Positions 29,132 to 37,562 of a stretch of 37,562 bases of DNA are shown piece after piece. The position numbers were made by a program, and so were the translations under genes. How positions within the stretch are numbered: position 1 is the stretch's first letter; each line of letters opens with the position of its first letter. The notes under the pieces were generated by a model. It was not told where the DNA came from. It did no database searches and was given only the letters and a program-made list of their open reading frames with translations. Location of the stretch: contig JAMOMT010000106.1 in assembly GCA_027066965.1 (NCBI GenBank), positions 1 through 37,562 on the forward strand. Reading direction: 5' to 3'. The DNA is from Archaeoglobaceae archaeon. GTDB taxonomy: Archaea > Halobacteriota > Archaeoglobi > Archaeoglobales > Archaeoglobaceae.

Positions 29132-31231
29132 TCACTTAACCGCAAGCCTGTAGTAACCATCCCTTGGGGAGTATATGTCTCCAACTTCCTTCATCTTCCT
29201 TAAAAGCTCCCTCGTCTTCGCCGGCTCTATCCCCTCCTCCTCTGCTGCTCTAAGGATTTCCTCCTCCGGAGCTCCCTTCTCATAGCTCGCTTCAAGCTCC
29301 TCTATTATCCTTTTGAGAATAAATATCCTATCTCTTTGAGACTTGGAAGTGCCAGTAAACGCGTAGTCTATGTCTATCTCACCCGTCTCCGGATCAACGG
29401 CTATCTGTTCGAGGCTGTGTCTTATTATCCCAATAACTCTTTCCACATCTTCTCTCTCTATGACGTCACTTAACCTCAGCCTCGCAGAAGCCTCTGCAAG
29501 TCTTATCAGAGCCTCAAGCTGCCTTGCAGTGACTGGTACTGCGGAGTTCTCCTTGGCCCTCGACCTCAGACTCAAATAGAAGTCCATTATCCTCTCCTTC
29601 GCCTCCTCGCTCAGTACTGGAAAGACTGTTCTCTTCGCGTACGCTATGTACTTCCTCAACAGCTCCGGCTCTATTGCGGGAACTATCTCCGCTATTTCGG
29701 ACTCCCTAGTCAGCTCCTCCTTCGTGTACTCAGCAGATGCAATGTTCCTGAGCTTCTCGAACTTCTCACCTATCTCGTGAGTCTTGAGTATGTGCTCCGC
29801 AAGTTTTCTATCCCTAACTTCATCCGGATCGTCAGTCAGCACGAATATCAGGTCGAAACGGGAGAGGAGAGTTGGAGACAAGTCTATCTGCTCTGCTATC
29901 GGAGTGTATCTGTCAAATCTACCGTATTTGGGGTTTGCGGCTCCCAAGAGAGCACACCTTGCCCTTAAAACTGCATTAATACCAGCTTTGGCAACGCTTA
30001 CCGTCTGCTGCTCCATAGCCTCGTGCAAAGCCGAGCGATCCTCGCTTCTCATCTTATCTATCTCGTCAACCAGAGCTATACCCTTGTCAGCTAAAACCAA
30101 AGCTCCAGCCTCGAGTGTCCACCTACCATCGAATTCGTCTCTCGTCGCTGTTGCTGTCAGACCGGCAGTCGTCGTTCCCTTTCCTGTTGTATAGACGCTC
30201 CTCGGAGCTATCCTGTGAACGTATCTGAGAATCTGAGACTTCGCAACTCCCGGATCTCCAACCAGCAAAACATGTATATCCCCTCTGATCTCCGTTCCAT
30301 CCGGCAACTTCTTGGGCACCCCTCCAAAGAGTTGGAGAGCTATTGCCAGCTTTATGTCCTCGTGCCCGTATATGGAGGGGGCTATTGAGGCAACTATCTT
30401 GTCGTATATTCTCTCATCCTCAGCAAGCTCGAGTATCCTCTTCTTATCCTCTTCGGTTATCTCAAACTCCTCGTACTCCTGCTCGAGAACTTCTATGGAG
30501 TTTCCCTCTATATGCAGATCCATGTGCTGGAGCTGCTTCGCTCCAGCCTTCCTCGGCTTAGCCCTGACTATCCCGTTTATTATCACCCTGTCTCCTGGAT
30601 TTACTTTACCAGTCAAGTCTCCTTCGAGCATCACATCTATTTGCTGGGGCTGCTCACCTCCCCTTAGGTTCTCGGGATACTCCTGAATCCTTATTCTCTG
30701 GCTGTCAACGGTCGTGCTCTCTTCTGGGAGGAATATGAAACGCTTGTTCTTGCAGGCAGGGCACTCGTATGGTTGTTTCAGCACATTCTCGTCTTCCTGT
30801 TGAACGTATACAACCTTTCCACACTTACTGCAAGCAAAAGCCGCAGTTACGACCCTTGGCCTTACTTCTGTCACCTTTCTAACTATTCCCTCTATAGCAA
30901 GAAATCTCGCAATGTGCTCACTCCTAAGGTCCCTTATCAGCACTCTCCTCGATGTAGGGAGGTTGAAGAACCTGACCTCGCAGCCTTCAAGGTTAACGTC
31001 ATGAATGTTCTCAGTTAATGCAAGACCGTCTCTCGCGTGAGATAGGACTCTATCCGGGAAGGAGAGCAACTCTTCTCCGAGCCTACCCTCCCTGTATATT
31101 GAGAGGTCCTTGAGAAAGTCAACGTAAAGGGATCTCTCTCCACCGTACTCAACAGCATCAGCTAATCTGTTTAGCTCATCTCTGTAGTACGTTTCAAAGA
31201 ACTCTTTCCACACTTGCGGGGAACTTAGCAT
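29132..31231 (-). CDS. mcm: Replicative helicase MCM
   Basis: Zn finger CSKCG...CPACKN, GDPGVAKSQ (Walker A), ALVDEIDKM (Walker B), SRFDLIF arginine finger, C-terminal wH. No intein-sized insertion. Confidence 0.95.
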   Translation of the reverse strand: MLSSPQVWKEFFETYYRDELNRLADAVEYGGERSLYVDFLKDLSIYREGRLGEELLSFPDRVLSHARDGLALTENIHDVNLEGCEVRFFNLPTSRRVLIRDLRSEHIARFLAIEGIVRKVTEVRPRVVTAAFACSKCGKVVYVQQEDENVLKQPYECPACKNKRFIFLPEESTTVDSQRIRIQEYPENLRGGEQPQQIDVMLEGDLTGKVNPGDRVIINGIVRAKPRKAGAKQLQHMDLHIEGNSIEVLEQEYEEFEITEEDKKRILELAEDERIYDKIVASIAPSIYGHEDIKLAIALQLFGGVPKKLPDGTEIRGDIHVLLVGDPGVAKSQILRYVHRIAPRSVYTTGKGTTTAGLTATATRDEFDGRWTLEAGALVLADKGIALVDEIDKMRSEDRSALHEAMEQQTVSVAKAGINAVLRARCALLGAANPKYGRFDRYTPIAEQIDLSPTLLSRFDLIFVLTDDPDEVRDRKLAEHILKTHEIGEKFEKLRNIASAEYTKEELTRESEIAEIVPAIEPELLRKYIAYAKRTVFPVLSEEAKERIMDFYLSLRSRAKENSAVPVTARQLEALIRLAEASARLRLSDVIEREDVERVIGIIRHSLEQIAVDPETGEIDIDYAFTGTSKSQRDRIFILKRIIEELEASYEKGAPEEEILRAAEEEGIEPAKTRELLRKMKEVGDIYSPRDGYYRLAVK

Positions 31232-31660: not shown

Positions 31661-32677
31661 ATGCCCAGAAAGTTCATCGTCAAAACCCCACTCAACATGG
31701 AGTACATAGCGGCGTCTCACCTCATGGACAACGGCGTCAAAGTTGTAGAGGTAAGACCTTCAGGCTTCTTCGGTCTCCTGATAGCTGAAAGTGATGACGA
31801 AGAAAAATTGAATGTTCCGGAAGTAGAGAATATTATCCCAGTAGTGGAAGAGTGCGACGCCGAAATAGAGAGCATCTTATCCAAAGCTGACGCAGTTGCA
31901 GAAAAGATGAAAGGGATAGGGGCGAGAACTTTTGACGTAAAGGCGAGAGTCAGGGGTAGAAAATCGTTCAGAAACAGAGATGTTACCTCGACTCTCTCCA
32001 GCAGGCTTCTGGAGTTCGGCTTCACTCAGGATTGGATAGAACCAGACGTAACCGTATGCGTCGAGGTTATCGGAAATAGGGCTTACATCGGCATGATAAG
32101 AGGAGTTCTCGAACACAGGAAGTACCTTGGAAAGGAGGATTCCACGAAACTCTTCGGAAAGGTGAGTATCGTTCAAACTCCCTACCTCGAGAAAAAGGCT
32201 TACGAGTTTGGAGAGGCGATAGGAAGGGCAGCTCAGGCTTTTGAGGTCAAGGAGCTTGTAATCGCTCCGTGCGGTTATGTAAATGCGTTCGAGCTCGAGC
32301 AGTTTATAAAAGGCGTAAGGGTGGGGCAGAAGAGTAGACTTGAAGTGCAGAAGAGAGCTTACTCAAGGGACGTGAGAGAGACGGCCGTTTTGCTGCACGA
32401 CCTCTACCAGTGTGTCAGGGACAAGAGGAGAAAGAGGAACCTGATAATAGTAACGGATCCCGCCGGGGTTTCTGTGAGCGAGGTCCACAACGAACTTACT
32501 GGAAAGATAAAGAGGTGCGACGAGATAGTTATATTCGCGGGGAGCAGGCAGGGAATACCTAAGGGTGTTTTCAGGTTTGCTGACTACGTCATAGACCTCG
32601 CACCAAACGTCACTTTCGCAACTGAGCACACAATTCCGGCTATTCTCAGCGTTCTCGCTGAGATGTGGATTTCCTGA
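31661..32677 (+). CDS. THUMP-domain protein fused to a SPOUT-like (putative RNA methyltransferase) C-terminal domain
   Basis: FDVKARVRGRKSFRNRDVTSTLSSRLL...PDVTVCVEVIGNRAYIGMI is THUMP-like. The C-terminal IVIFAGSRQGIPKGVFRFADYVIDLAP..TFATEHTIPAILSVL resembles a SPOUT knot region. TATA-like ctataaac about 28 nt upstream. Confidence 0.55.
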   Translation: MPRKFIVKTPLNMEYIAASHLMDNGVKVVEVRPSGFFGLLIAESDDEEKLNVPEVENIIPVVEECDAEIESILSKADAVAEKMKGIGARTFDVKARVRGRKSFRNRDVTSTLSSRLLEFGFTQDWIEPDVTVCVEVIGNRAYIGMIRGVLEHRKYLGKEDSTKLFGKVSIVQTPYLEKKAYEFGEAIGRAAQAFEVKELVIAPCGYVNAFELEQFIKGVRVGQKSRLEVQKRAYSRDVRETAVLLHDLYQCVRDKRRKRNLIIVTDPAGVSVSEVHNELTGKIKRCDEIVIFAGSRQGIPKGVFRFADYVIDLAPNVTFATEHTIPAILSVLAEMWIS

Positions 32678-33148: not shown

Positions 33149-33988
33149 CTACTTTATAATCCTCATACTAACATCAACTGCTCTTGCCGAGTGAGTTATC
33201 CAGCCAGAGGATATGATGTCAACTCCTACCATGGCATAGCTCTCCGCATTCTCTGGGGTTATCCCTCCAGACGCTTCTACAAGCACATCCCCTACCTCTC
33301 TTATCTTTTTAACCGCCACTTCCACCTCCTTTAAACTCATGTTATCAAGCATGACTATATCAGCTCCTGCAAGGACGGCCTCAACCGCATCTTCCACGCT
33401 CGAAACTTCAACCTCAACCTTCTTCGTAAAAGATGCTTTCTTCGCTTCCTCTACAGCCCTCCTCACGCTTCCAGCTATGGCGATGTGGTTGTCCTTAACA
33501 AGCACGCAGTCGGAGAGACTCATCCTGTGAGTATCTCCACCACCATGAGTAACTGCCACCTTTTCGAAAAGCCTGAAACCAGGAGTAGTTTTTCTCGTGG
33601 CAGCCACTCTAATTCCATAAGGCTCAACTACAGAAACGAGCTTTCTTGTAGCTGTAGCGACCCCACTCATCCTCTGAATTATGTTGAGGGCCGTTCTCTC
33701 CGCAAGAAGTACATCTTTCGCGAGACCTTCAGCCGTCAAAATAATGTCTCCCTTCCCAACCCAGCTGCCGTCTCTTTTCAGGACCTTCGCCTTACACTCG
33801 CAGAGTTCAAAGGTCATTCTGGCGAACTCCACTCCAGAAAGTAGAAAACTCTCCTTTGCAACAACTTCGGCTTCGACAACTACCTCTGGAAAAACAACTG
33901 TACAGTCTCCGTAAAACGCATCCTCTTCTATGAATCTCTTGATGTATTCCTCCACAACGGGTTTTGGGAGAGTTATCGATGCTTTCAC
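33149..33988 (-). CDS. nadC: Nicotinate-nucleotide pyrophosphorylase (quinolinate phosphoribosyltransferase)
   Basis: ERTALNIIQRMSGVATATRK, ATRKTTPG, HR.SLSD..LVKDNH, MLDNM. GTG start with SD aagggggat. Confidence 0.9.
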   Translation of the reverse strand: MKASITLPKPVVEEYIKRFIEEDAFYGDCTVVFPEVVVEAEVVAKESFLLSGVEFARMTFELCECKAKVLKRDGSWVGKGDIILTAEGLAKDVLLAERTALNIIQRMSGVATATRKLVSVVEPYGIRVAATRKTTPGFRLFEKVAVTHGGGDTHRMSLSDCVLVKDNHIAIAGSVRRAVEEAKKASFTKKVEVEVSSVEDAVEAVLAGADIVMLDNMSLKEVEVAVKKIREVGDVLVEASGGITPENAESYAMVGVDIISSGWITHSARAVDVSMRIIK

Positions 33989-34015
33989 ATCAAATCCCCC
34001 TTCTAATATTAAAGC

Positions 34016-34840
34016 TCAAAGAGTCCCAACCTTAATACTCTCACCAAAAGATTTCAGAAGCCTGACGGCAGAAAGAGCCGCTAAATAGCTCGTCTTGGGG
34101 TTTTTCGGGTGCTTCCTGTTTTTGAAGATAAACTTCATCTCCCCAAACTCCCCCCTGACAAATACCTCGTGAATGTTCTCCTTCACATGGGGGTCAGCAA
34201 ATATCCTTACTTTTGTCTTCTCGAAACCGAGGCAGGCTAAGCTAACGGTCGCTGCTACGTTTACGTTTGCTGGGAATAGGGTCACAGCCTCCTTGGCCGA
34301 CCCTTCGAAGATTAGCGTTCTCTCTCCTATCTCATCAACCTCTACCTCTCTATGTTTTTCGAAGAACGGTGCACCTCTCAAGCTCTCTGGGCTCTTTATA
34401 GTAGTAAGCACAACCTCCTCAGCAACATCCCTCACAGCTTTGAGGGCGTCTATCCCTCCAACAGCTCCAGAAGGGACGAAAATTCTCTTTCCACTTCTCC
34501 CCGCAATTCTCTCCGCTATCTCGACCACCTCAGGATTAGCAAAGGCTCCGACGCTCATCACAAGAAGGTTCGTAAACTCAAGCACTGGAAGGAGTTCTCT
34601 CACAGCAGACTGAGACGCTGCCTCAACCACAACATCAACTCTCCTGCAAATCTCCACGAGTTCTTCAAAACTCTTAAGAGCTCTGGCTCCAGTCACTTTT
34701 GCCAGCTCCTCAGCTTTCTCTGGATTTCTGTCGAAGACAGCTGTTACCTCGTACCCGTCACTACTGAGAGCTATCGTCCTACCTATTGCCCCGCAACCAA
34801 CAATTGCAACTTTCGTTCTATTCATTCCATTCCCGCTCAT
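34016..34840 (-). CDS. nadX: L-aspartate dehydrogenase
   Basis: VAIVGCGAIG Rossmann motif, PSGAVGGIDALKA, FEGSAKEAVTLFPANVNVAATVSL, NPKTSYLAALS align with my recollection of TM1643-type AspDH. ATG 34840 preceded by aggtgggtgg. Confidence 0.85.
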   Translation of the reverse strand: MSGNGMNRTKVAIVGCGAIGRTIALSSDGYEVTAVFDRNPEKAEELAKVTGARALKSFEELVEICRRVDVVVEAASQSAVRELLPVLEFTNLLVMSVGAFANPEVVEIAERIAGRSGKRIFVPSGAVGGIDALKAVRDVAEEVVLTTIKSPESLRGAPFFEKHREVEVDEIGERTLIFEGSAKEAVTLFPANVNVAATVSLACLGFEKTKVRIFADPHVKENIHEVFVRGEFGEMKFIFKNRKHPKNPKTSYLAALSAVRLLKSFGESIKVGTL

Positions 34841-34978
34841 TACCACCCACCTAAATTCTTACACTCTCCACAGTCTTTTGCTTTCCGCTATTCAAAATCA
34901 ACGATCACCCAGACTAATAAACAGATTAACCAACTGACCAAATAAAGCTAAAATAGACATTCAGCGTAAACTCGCGAA

Positions 34979-35920
34979 TCACACTCCAAACATCACCTCT
35001 ATAGCCTTTCTTGCTCTCTCGGCTAAGCTCTCTTCAACTCTAACGACGTTTTTCTCCTCCTTGAGTGCAAGGTAAACTCTCTCGAGCGTGTTTAGTTTCA
35101 TCTCTATGCAGACAGCTTTTCTCAGAGGAACAAACGTCTTCCCCTCTATCTCTGCATTCATCCTTTCCACTAGTCCTACCTCAGTCCCTACTACGAACAG
35201 TTCCGAATCACTCTCAGCTGCATGTCTGTACATTTGGCTGGTTGAGCCGACGAAGTCAGCTTTGAGCTGGACTTCCACATCGCACTCGGGATGGACCATG
35301 ACTTCCGCCTCAGGATACGTTTTTCTCGCTCTCTCCACATCCTCCACCTGAAACATCTTGTGAACATAACAATAACCGTGACTCGGAACGGGTTCGACAT
35401 TTACGCCGCTCACCCTACTCGCAAATGCAGCGAGGTTAGCGTCGGGTCCGAGAAAGCACTTTCCTTTGGTGGCAAACTTCTTCGCTATCTTTGGTGCGTT
35501 TGCAGAGGTGCAGCAAACGTCAGCCTCTGCCTTCACGCTCGCGAGCGTGTTGACGTAGGCGACAAACGGATGGCCGGAGTTTTTCGCATCTCTCACCATC
35601 TCAGGCGTTAGCTGGGAGGCCATTGGACACCTCGCCTCCTTACATGGAATCAGAACTTTCTTGTCCGGATTTACGACTGCCGCAGTTTCCGCCATGAAGT
35701 CAACTCCGCAGAACACTATTATGTTCGCCTCAGTTTTAGAGGCAGCAACTGCGAGCTCCAGACTGTCTCCCTTAAAGTCGGCAACGCTCTGAACGTCAAG
35801 GCTCTGGTAGTTGTGAGCTAGAATTACGGCGTTTTTCTCCTCCTTCAGCCTTTCTATCTTTTTCTTGAGCTCCTCTATCTTTTTCTTATCGTTCAATCTA
35901 CCGGAGATCTCTGAAGACAT
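34979..35920 (-). CDS. nadA: Quinolinate synthase
   Basis: [19 protein letters not shown], Cys ligands, HPEC. Start at ATG 35920 (MSSEISGRL). Confidence 0.9.
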
Positions 35921-35943
35921 TGTCACTCTAAAGTACAATCGTC

Positions 35944-35955
35944 AAATTAAATTAT
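35944..35955. promoter_or_regulatory. Single AT-rich TATA-like box (aaattaaattat) shared by the divergent nadA and TS-like genes
   Basis: The intergenic region is only 55 bp (35921-35975). The box centre is about 26 nt from ATG 35976 and about 30 nt from ATG 35920. Confidence 0.35.
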
Positions 35956-35975: not shown

Positions 35976-37316
35976 ATGATTCTAGAAGACTCACCAGAGG
36001 AAGCTTTGAGGAGGCTGGCTGCAAAGATCGTGGAGGAAGGCAAGCCCGTAATGTCGAGATACGGCACAGCGATTCACGCTCCCCCTTCTCTCCTGATAGT
36101 AAGGAAACCCGAATACTTCGGCTCGGACGTGGAGGAGTTCTGGCATACGGAGGGAGAGAGCTACGTTGACAGGACTGAGGAGCTCTTAAACGCTGTAGCT
36201 GCTAAGCTGAAGGCCAGCCCGTTCACGAGGAGGATGTCCGTTCCTCTATGGCTGCCCAGAGATCACCTCTCTAAAACTCCCCCGGCAGTGACAGAGGTCA
36301 GCTTCCTCTACTTCAACAGGAAACTTAACGCAACAGCTTACGTGAGAAGCCTTGACATTGCCGATTACTTCTCTCACGACTTCGACCTCGTAAATTACAT
36401 GCTGGAAAGGGTATGCGAGCTCTCAGGCTTTGAGAAGGGGAGTGTAGGAATGCTCGTCGGCTGCCCCCATGTTTACGAAAGAGACATCGAAAGGGTTGAG
36501 AAGGAGCTTGGTCACTTGAAGGCAAAAGAGGTGTACGGTTCGACAAAAGAGGGAACTCACATAGTTGAGGACTACATCTCCTCAGCTTGGCATTCTGCAG
36601 TCGAAGCGGTTTACAACGGAATGGAGAAGAAAACTGAGTGGGGAAGCGTTTTCAGCAGGCAGGAAAAGTGTCGCTACCTCCCCCGGCTCTTTGTGGAAGT
36701 AAAAAAACCTGGGGAGAACCAAATACACGACAAAGCTCCGTTTTCAAGAGATTACGGAATAAGTTACGCCCACAGCTACGTGATCCATGCAGAGTGCATA
36801 GATAAGCCTGTCTGCACACCCGTTAAAAAAGGGGAGGGAGAAGTTTACACCTACGCAGAGAGAGCGAGGTACTGTGAAGCTGACGACGTTAGAGTGGATC
36901 AGCTTTACGCGTGCATAGAGAAGCTGAGGAAGAACAGGTACGCGAGAGACTGCTACGTCTCGATCTCGAGGCCGTGGGATTTGTTCTGCGACGAGCCTCC
37001 ATGTCTAAGAGGTTACCAGTTCATAGGGCTTCCGAGTAGGAAAGATAGGCAAGAAAGGCAAAGAAGGCTCGCCGGAATATTTTACATGCGCTCGAACGAC
37101 ATCTTTGGTGCTATGCACGCAAACATGTTCGCCTTCGCGATTCTCACATCCTACGTTGCCGAGCTCACGAGCTTTGACAGCTACGTTTACTACCACTTTG
37201 CAAATGATGCACACATATACGCGGATTCGCTGAAAGCAGCTAAAGAAGTTCTGTTCCCGGAAACCCCCAAGCTCTTGGACTCTTTACTACCGGAACAAGA
37301 AAAGATGGAAACTTGA
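35976..37316 (+). CDS. Tandem (duplicated) thymidylate-synthase-like protein
   Basis: The N half has SPFTRRMSVPLWLPRD / PPAVTEVSFLYF / LNATAYVRSLDIADYF / GCPHVY. The C half has RYARDCYVSISRPWD / PPCLRGYQF / LAGIFYMRSNDIFGAMHANMFAFAIL / NDAHIY. Both sets align to ThyA motifs DSRRIIVSAWN / APCHAFFQFYV / [26 protein letters not shown] / GDTHLY. Start at ATG 35976 avoids overlap with nadA. Confidence 0.7.
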   Translation: MILEDSPEEALRRLAAKIVEEGKPVMSRYGTAIHAPPSLLIVRKPEYFGSDVEEFWHTEGESYVDRTEELLNAVAAKLKASPFTRRMSVPLWLPRDHLSKTPPAVTEVSFLYFNRKLNATAYVRSLDIADYFSHDFDLVNYMLERVCELSGFEKGSVGMLVGCPHVYERDIERVEKELGHLKAKEVYGSTKEGTHIVEDYISSAWHSAVEAVYNGMEKKTEWGSVFSRQEKCRYLPRLFVEVKKPGENQIHDKAPFSRDYGISYAHSYVIHAECIDKPVCTPVKKGEGEVYTYAERARYCEADDVRVDQLYACIEKLRKNRYARDCYVSISRPWDLFCDEPPCLRGYQFIGLPSRKDRQERQRRLAGIFYMRSNDIFGAMHANMFAFAILTSYVAELTSFDSYVYYHFANDAHIYADSLKAAKEVLFPETPKLLDSLLPEQEKMET

Positions 37317-37330
37317 TGCTACGTCCGACT

Positions 37331-37562
37331 TTAAAGCCCCTCCACGAACTCGACTATTCTTTCCACAGCCTCCTTCAGCTTTTCCATGCTAACGGCGTAA
37401 GCGCACCTAATGTATCCTTCTCCACACTCTCCAAATGCGTTTCCGGGAACGACAGCCACTTTTTTCTCGAAGAGTAGCCTCTTTGCAAACTCCTCGCTGC
37501 TCAATCCGGTTTCCTTCACCGAGGGAAAAGCGTAGAACGCTCCATCCGGCTTCTTGACGTCG
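37331..37562 (-). CDS. Class I/II (aspartate-type) aminotransferase, C-terminal end; 5' part lies right of the window
   Basis: The frame stays open to the window edge: DVKKPDGAFYAFPSVKETGLSSEEFAKRLLFEKKVAVVPGNAFGECGEGYIRCAYA is a typical AAT C-terminus. Confidence 0.8.
   Translation of the reverse strand, partial: DVKKPDGAFYAFPSVKETGLSSEEFAKRLLFEKKVAVVPGNAFGECGEGYIRCAYAVSMEKLKEAVERIVEFVEGL

Follow-up and report, generated by a model that had tools for sequence, protein, structure and literature searches.

A tandem archaeal thymidylate synthase is predicted to form a single-chain pseudo-dimer with one catalytic site

Thymidylate synthase (TS) is a textbook obligate homodimer whose half-of-the-sites behaviour has been argued for decades by way of engineered heterodimers, and L. 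casei subunits carrying R178F and C198A are reportedly able to complement one another. In ThyA, the arginine (Arg) residues R126 and R127 act on deoxyuridine monophosphate (dUMP) in the opposite protomer (PMC5981203). Engineered heterodimers include the one-site E. coli wild type/R126E-R127E enzyme (PMC5981203) and the R126E+C146W enzyme of Maley et al. 1995 (as cited in PMC5981203), and those in which one subunit is disabled at the catalytic cysteine (Cys) and the other at Arg possess one working site with normal dUMP affinity (PMC5981203). Archaeal thymidylate synthases are still largely uncharacterised (PMC9931769). The subject of this analysis is a gene at positions 35976-37316 of a 37,562-nucleotide stretch of DNA from an Archaeoglobaceae archaeon (the entire metagenome-assembled contig JAMOMT010000106.1; the whole stretch is referred to as the window), which encodes two TS-family domains in tandem and whose product probably constitutes a natural, covalently linked counterpart of such one-site heterodimers.

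The tandem coding sequence (35976..37316, forward strand, as are all features below unless stated otherwise) is complete, comprising 446 amino acids (aa) plus stop, and is translated without interruption. Its ATG at 35976 is where homologues begin (MILEDSP..., MILESSA..., MIIASSV...). When submitted to Pfam PF00303, which has a gathering score of 24.3 bits, the whole protein scores 108.3 bits. The halves were also submitted separately, and the N half (aa 1-235) scores 43.8 bits (E=2.3e-11, match at aa 56-179) and the C half (aa 236-446) 68.1 bits (E=8.9e-19), giving the two separate domain matches that had been expected in an earlier first-pass annotation of the window, made from its sequence alone. 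The best NCBIfam model for both halves is the methanogen-type TIGR03283 (38.1 bits for the N half, 67.2 for the C half and 107 for the whole protein); the window protein is not a member of this equivalog, its 107 bits comparing with a cut-off of 174.55. Together with predicted secondary structure, the PF00303 matches delimit an N-terminal TS-fold domain (aa 1-180; 35976..36515), which is Cys-less, shortened, and faster evolving, an in-frame inter-domain linker, LKAKEVYGSTKEG (aa 181-193; 36516..36554), in a conserved region, and a C-terminal TS-fold domain (aa 194-446; 36555..37313), which is predicted to be catalytic and has 52 positions conserved in at least 95% of sequences. The halves share 22% identity with each other over 108 residues. 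Motif homology was assigned from HMMER alignments to solved ThyA chains and from a MAFFT alignment that also took in nine archaeal synthases of the single-domain kind and E. coli ThyA; the two agree on motif positions in both halves and place the ThyA motifs homologously, as the first-pass annotation had proposed. On the evidence of these profiles and alignments, both halves are genuine TS domains, and a single polypeptide holds two copies, long since diverged, of the short 'methanogen-type' TS fold.

Both halves share the fold of canonical homodimeric ThyA (E. coli, L. casei, human), and its catalytic residues are divided between them, as counted in 113 full-length homologues. In the N half, the TRR at aa 84-86 aligns with E. 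coli SRR in the HMMER and MAFFT alignments, which places R85-R86 (36228..36233; codons AGG AGG) at E. coli R126/R127 on the homologous loop, and the pair is present in 113/113 sequences. The position of the catalytic Cys (E. coli C146) is occupied by A104 (36285..36287; GCA), with alanine (Ala) in 101 homologues, serine (Ser) in 10, threonine in two, and Cys in none (0/113). The PPAV of the N half (A104) and the PPCL of the C half (C343) both align with E. coli P-C146-H. The C half possesses the nucleophile C343 (E. coli C146; TGT at 37002-37004) within C343-L344-R345 (37002..37010), in which the Leu-Arg is family-specific and each residue is found in 113/113. Equally invariant (113/113) are R372-S373-N374-D375 (37089..37100; R166-S167-x-D169), N383 (37122..37124; E. 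coli N177, the uracil-specifying asparagine, Asn) and H413-I-Y415 (37212..37220; H207/Y209, the deoxyribose 3'-OH contacts), while Y291-T-Y293 (36846..36854) lies in an invariant YTYAERAR motif that covers the E. coli Y94 region in the alignment of 113 sequences. At the R126-R127 position the C half possesses R324-D325 (36945..36950), A-R-D in place of S-R-R, with Arg at the first position in 113/113 and D101/R5/Q4/N2/T1 at the second. The first-pass annotation had named the AGG AGG, GCA and TGT codons and the SND...HAN and NDAHIY segments of the C half, and these are located exactly where it had placed them; its statement that RYARD replaces the Arg-Arg pair is correct for the second Arg, but the first is retained.

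The halves also differ in structure and in rate of evolution. The segment that begins helix B, D252-K253-A254-P255-F256 (36729..36743), is nearly invariant and present only in the C half, where it aligns with the cofactor-side region around E. coli K48-E58 and is followed by a helix at aa 258-270. The N half, by alignment and predicted secondary structure, lacks approximately 30 residues matching the helix-B/E58 region of E. coli ThyA. S263 (36762-36764), which by alignment is equivalent to E. coli E58, is a rare variant at a position that is E61/D42 in the family. In 100% of sequence pairs the C half is the better conserved of the two, with a mean identity of 64% compared with 45% for the N half, and only 15 N-half positions are conserved in at least 95% of sequences, R85 and R86 being among them.

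An AlphaFold2 model of the window protein, built on an alignment of 33 sequences, has a mean pLDDT of 92.0 and a pTM of 0.91, and a model of the homologue P0109 (33% identity; Syntropharchaeia/Methanocellales type) has a pLDDT of 90.7 and a pTM of 0.91; both are compact. Given that a pTM of 0.91 for a two-domain chain means that the placement of the halves is confidently predicted, the models indicate that their relative placement is fixed. Low confidence in the window model is confined to the C-terminal tail and to a strongly basic, lineage-specific insertion, LPSRKDRQERQR (aa 352-363; 37029..37064), a predicted surface loop. This insertion lies between two strands of the C half and occurs in the window's own cluster; P0003 has a shorter version, and the remaining aligned homologues have none.

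The window protein is best read, and probably so, as a ThyA-type synthase that forms a pseudo-dimer within a single chain and has one catalytic site. The two copies would pack like the subunits of a ThyA homodimer, R85/R86 would cross the interface and bind the phosphate of dUMP in the C-half pocket, and each chain would possess one catalytic site with C343 as nucleophile. The invariance of the Arg-Arg pair in a half that has no nucleophile is explained if the pair serves the C-half site. The pseudo-dimer with one complete site that the first-pass annotation had predicted thus finds support in the two TS domains, in the invariance of the Arg-Arg pair and of the Cys, in the confident models of two homologues, and in a fusion present in 79 genomes.

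By analogy, the protein most resembles in function the engineered one-site heterodimers, its N half corresponding to a 'Cys to Ala' subunit and its C half to a 'second Arg to Asp' subunit. It differs from them in being natural, covalently linked, and fixed across a whole archaeal class, and further in that the C half retains the first Arg and the N half has lost a whole structural segment. Compared with canonical ThyA, the protein is one chain with two non-identical domains rather than two identical subunits, possesses one nucleophile per domain pair, and has short domains of about 180 and 250 aa, compared with at least 264 aa; it also lacks the W80/W83 segment, the C-terminal tail, and, in the catalytic half, an equivalent of R21. 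If the proposed arrangement is true, the retention of one natural site per pseudo-dimer across a whole class of archaea would establish that a single site for each pair suffices in vivo, and the protein would provide a stable, covalent, asymmetric system for the study of site-to-site communication.

Several observations weigh against this reading. The window protein falls short of the trusted cut-off in all NCBIfam equivalogs for thymidylate synthase, and formation of deoxythymidine monophosphate (dTMP) with a defined cofactor is yet to be demonstrated for any short-type TS of archaea (PMC9931769). The pTM values, as properties of a prediction, indicate confident packing of the halves and not that the packing is ThyA-like. 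The C-half pocket is without an R21 equivalent, the position being E221 in the window protein and E105/Q8 among the homologues, and single-domain archaeal relatives vary there too. Of the four canonical phosphate-binding Arg, each pocket therefore has three, the C half lacking the R21 equivalent and the N half the second trans-Arg, and so the firm asymmetry between the halves consists of the nucleophile and the helix-B segment. Finally, the N-half pocket (R28, R124, S125, H165 and Y167, with R324 in trans) is too conserved for a dead site, and 'one site' therefore holds for catalysis only and not necessarily for ligand binding.

The residues of the N-half pocket bear on this last point. R28 (36057..36059) is equivalent to E. 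coli R21, the phosphate-binding Arg of a domain's own pocket, and is R92/K12 among the 113 homologues; in a distant clade of eight sequences the equivalent Arg lies one residue later, at position 29. The Y94 equivalent, Y63, is invariant (113/113), as are R124 and S125 of R124-S125-L126-D127 (36345..36356; R166-S167-x-D169), the last position of which is D96/E12/N5, and both H165 and Y167 of H165-V-Y167 (36468..36476; H207/Y209) are found in 113/113. By spacing, the N177 equivalent is N95/D14 and in the window protein is the rarer variant, D135 (36378-36380), although the register is ambiguous, the HMMER alignment having a two-residue gap there and pointing to D137. From these residues the N-half pocket is not degenerate, the loss being of the nucleophile and the helix-B segment rather than of nucleotide-binding residues generally. 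The 'complementary remnants' of the first-pass annotation accordingly describe the division of Cys and Arg-Arg between the halves well but overstate the decay of the N half, where R28, Y63, R124/S125 and H165/Y167 are all kept. Under the proposed mechanism this pocket, with R324 supplied in trans, would be non-catalytic and may still bind nucleotide; from the residues at hand we infer that it either does so or is held together by D325 in the phosphate site.

The strongest alternative retains the same architecture and treats the N pocket as a working non-catalytic ligand site, for example an allosteric or product-sensing site for dUMP/dTMP or one in which part of the one-carbon (C1) carrier is bound. 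The N half would then be a regulatory pseudo-enzyme domain and not only an Arg donor, which refines the one-site reading and does not exclude it. The retained equivalents of R21, Y94, R166/S167, D169 and H207/Y209, the usual Asn at the N177 spacing, and the invariant first trans-Arg of the C half are as this alternative expects, and the pocket residues account for most of what little is conserved in a fast-evolving half. In the Syntrophoarchaeum-type proteins the pocket is nearly complete: the nucleophile position has Ser, and RR or RQ is supplied in trans. The D325 of Archaeoglobi, however, could fill the phosphate site itself, and the conserved Arg might be structural; the N177 register is ambiguous, and the helix-B segment, which is part of the canonical site, is missing. 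A working ligand site is thus a real possibility, if one that we would not presume. More doubtful is a fuller version, in which the proteins of Archaeoglobi and Syntrophoarchaeia would be hard-wired half-of-the-sites synthases with an allosteric or product-sensing N pocket and a catalytic half that uses methylene-tetrahydromethanopterin.

With regard to the substrate of the predicted catalytic half, N383 and the H207/Y209 equivalents favour a deoxyuridine nucleotide, and the substrate would be dUMP because the Asn177 equivalent is kept. Cytosine-specific relatives of the TS fold carry Asp at the N177 position. This mark of deoxycytidine monophosphate (dCMP) and cytidine monophosphate (CMP) hydroxymethylases (Asp for Asn177, as in T4 gp42 and MilA) is absent, N383 being Asn in 113/113. 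The elements that contact folate, namely the W80/W83 segment and the cofactor-closing C-terminal tail, were not found in the C half in the MAFFT alignment; the aligned segment contains no Trp, and the C half ends approximately 30 residues past Y415, compared with 55 past Y209 in E. coli. The C1 donor would probably be a methanopterin-type carrier rather than folate. To our knowledge, work on a purified enzyme has never resolved how methanopterin-using organisms make thymidylate, and the window protein provides a defined target for this question. The ThyA of folate-free archaea has been inferred to use methanopterin-type carriers, a use yet to be demonstrated with any purified enzyme from archaea (PMC9012536, PMC9931769, PMC5654409).

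The missing folate contacts also speak for a second alternative, that the protein is not a dTMP synthase at all but another pyrimidine C5-modifying enzyme with a TS fold, such as a dUMP/dCMP hydroxymethylase or a flavin-dependent hydroxylase. Foldseek matches of the window model are all ThyA-family or TS-fold enzymes, in the PDB and among viral predicted structures alike. The highest target coverage is that of 9iqu, the phage dCMP hydroxylase AfhB (TMt 0.71), followed by 9iqc (TMt 0.65), a riboflavin/FAD-dependent monooxygenase with dCMP bound, both released in the PDB in 2025; MilA and T4-type dCMP hydroxymethylases are also among the top matches by this measure. There are, then, short enzymes of the TS fold whose chemistry does not involve folate. 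Foldseek aligns single chains, and nothing in either library covers both halves together (top TMq 0.41 in the PDB and 0.40 in BFVD). The scores below all thymidylate synthase cut-offs and the lack of a short archaeal TS known to form dTMP with any defined cofactor (PMC9931769) would likewise fit an enzyme of this kind. However, the N177 equivalent is invariably Asn, where dCMP-hydroxymethylase-like representatives have Asp, and the catalytic Cys and the deoxyribose contacts are retained. The gene appears to be single-copy, has a housekeeping context, and is retained throughout the class, and comparative genomics finds ThyA and not ThyX in methanogens and A. fulgidus, the literature naming ThyA as their thymidylate synthase (PMC5654409). 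A different C5-modifying activity is accordingly improbable.

Somewhat less probable again is that pairing takes place across chains, with the N half of one chain packing on the C half of another, to give a domain-swapped dimer or higher oligomer with at least two catalytic sites per particle. The short linker, of about 13 residues, may speak for such an exchange, but the AlphaFold monomer models of both homologues set the halves together within one chain, and the logic of one site per N/C pair stays the same in either case.

The tandem architecture is encoded well beyond the window. A search of 5.8 billion proteins recovered 114 protein clusters, nearly all of 410-470 aa and with a query coverage of 97-100%, the named clusters belonging to Archaeoglobus, Geoglobus, Archaeoglobaceae, Methanocellales, and Syntropharchaeia. 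With one genome scanned per species, uninterrupted tblastn matches over query residues 1-437 were found at 79 loci, in Archaeoglobi, Ferroglobus, Geoglobus, Ca. Syntrophoarchaeum, Ca. Alkanophaga, and some metagenome-assembled genomes (MAGs) assigned to 'Methanocellales'; isolates with the tandem gene include A. veneficus, A. sulfaticallidus, Geoglobus ahangari, and G. acetivorans. That the fusion is an artefact of sequencing or assembly, joining two adjacent genes, is refuted by the same open frame and conserved linker in 114 clusters and 79 independent genomes, isolates included. The survey of fused and split genes called for by the first-pass annotation therefore returns the fusion in 79 species-level genomes, and no split heterodimer genes were found among the stand-alone N-half-like (Cys-less) and C-half-like (RR-less) candidates examined.

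The fusion is real and old, and its distribution is restricted. In a rough neighbour-joining (NJ) tree the N halves form one clade and the C halves another, with the same internal branching order, and two such matching clades point to a single fusion event before the lineages separated. At 22% identity between the halves, this rough tree does not decide between an internal duplication and a fusion of two paralogues. Ser occupies the N-half nucleophile position in the clade of Syntrophoarchaeum type, which supplies RR or RQ in trans, whereas most Archaeoglobi have Ala and R-D. The two states look like stepwise decay of one site, and in this respect resemble successive stages in the evolution of a pseudo-enzyme. 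Public domain annotations already display the domain duplication, and the homologues, which score under the equivalog cut-offs, are publicly named plain 'thymidylate synthase' with the architecture not flagged. The first-pass annotation did not recognise a characterised enzyme, and consistent with this, no earlier description of a tandem or pseudo-dimeric TS was found in the literature searched on the architecture and on archaeal TS biochemistry.

The closest family to both halves is the single-domain methanogen-type TS (TIGR03283; about 200-235 aa, such as P0118, P0120, P0133). A library clustered at 50% identity contains approximately four tandem representative clusters, and the next matches are single-domain proteins of about 200-240 aa. 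The single-domain enzymes share the short core and the YTYxER and C(L/M)R motifs with the C half, and in the rough tree the C halves nest among them. Unlike the tandem protein, they carry the Arg-Arg pair and the Cys in one domain, an arrangement compatible with a symmetric homodimer. A second comparison is provided by P0173, P0140, and P0125 (also P0213 and P0227), proteins of approximately 460-490 aa in which a central short TS domain of archaeal type stands between an MtrA-like domain (PF04208) and a C-terminal PterinBD-DUF4346 domain (PF14251). Here too a short TS core is extended by fusion, but the additions are pterin-related domains and not a second TS domain. The TS domain of these three-domain proteins keeps the Cys, with SRR/TRR in P0140 and P0173 and TRQ in P0125. 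The three-domain fusions are a hint that the short TS core recruits or relies on separate pterin modules.

Other TS-fold proteins with partial motif sets were encountered in a motif table of 147 representative hits, which is based on hmmalign and is off by one residue for a few entries (e.g. P0117, P0184). P0161 (L084:92-778) and P0231 (L085:4589-5254; L086:2711-3376) are stand-alone TS folds of approximately 220-230 aa with the Arg-Arg pair intact, and have Ala and Gly, respectively, at the Cys position. P0161 clusters with the N halves in the rough tree. No Cys-bearing TS gene adjoins P0161 or P0231 at their loci. The short TS-like proteins P0124 (L003:1615-2328, 'LRD') and P0187 (L004:259-912, 'TNQ') keep the Cys, and approximately ten further representatives resemble them in keeping the Cys and missing one or both trans-Arg. 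Members of this class lie on small phage-like contigs with many short same-strand open reading frames, and neither P0124 nor P0187 has a TS-like neighbour on its contig.

At the 5' end of the tandem gene, an alternative TTG start at 35865, which would give a longer open reading frame, was rejected because homologues begin at the ATG and the extension would enter the divergent nadA. The R122/R123 and C380 of the first-pass annotation were counted from this TTG instead of the ATG and are R85/R86 and C343 here. An A/T-rich stretch, AAATTAAATTAT (35944..35955), lies approximately 21-32 nucleotides 5' of the ATG and, read by eye, is a possible archaeal TATA-like box.

The genes around the tandem gene differ between the window, A. 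veneficus, and one Methanocellales MAG; no conserved neighbourhood was found in this comparison and the neighbours give no functional hint, as is expected of a stand-alone housekeeping enzyme. Housekeeping neighbours in the window are an archaeal MCM helicase (29132-31231, reverse strand), a THUMP-SPOUT RNA methyltransferase of the AF2226 type (31661-32677, forward strand), and, downstream of the tandem gene, a class I/II aminotransferase truncated by the contig edge to its C-terminal part (37331-37519, reverse strand). Divergent to the tandem gene is a cluster for de novo biosynthesis of nicotinamide adenine dinucleotide (33149-35938, reverse strand), which consists of nadA (34979-35938), an aspartate dehydrogenase (34016-34846), and nadC (33149-33988), all on the reverse strand. 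The aspartate dehydrogenase sets the organism apart from A. fulgidus VC-16, being only a distant relative of the solved A. fulgidus enzyme 2DC1 (159 bits).

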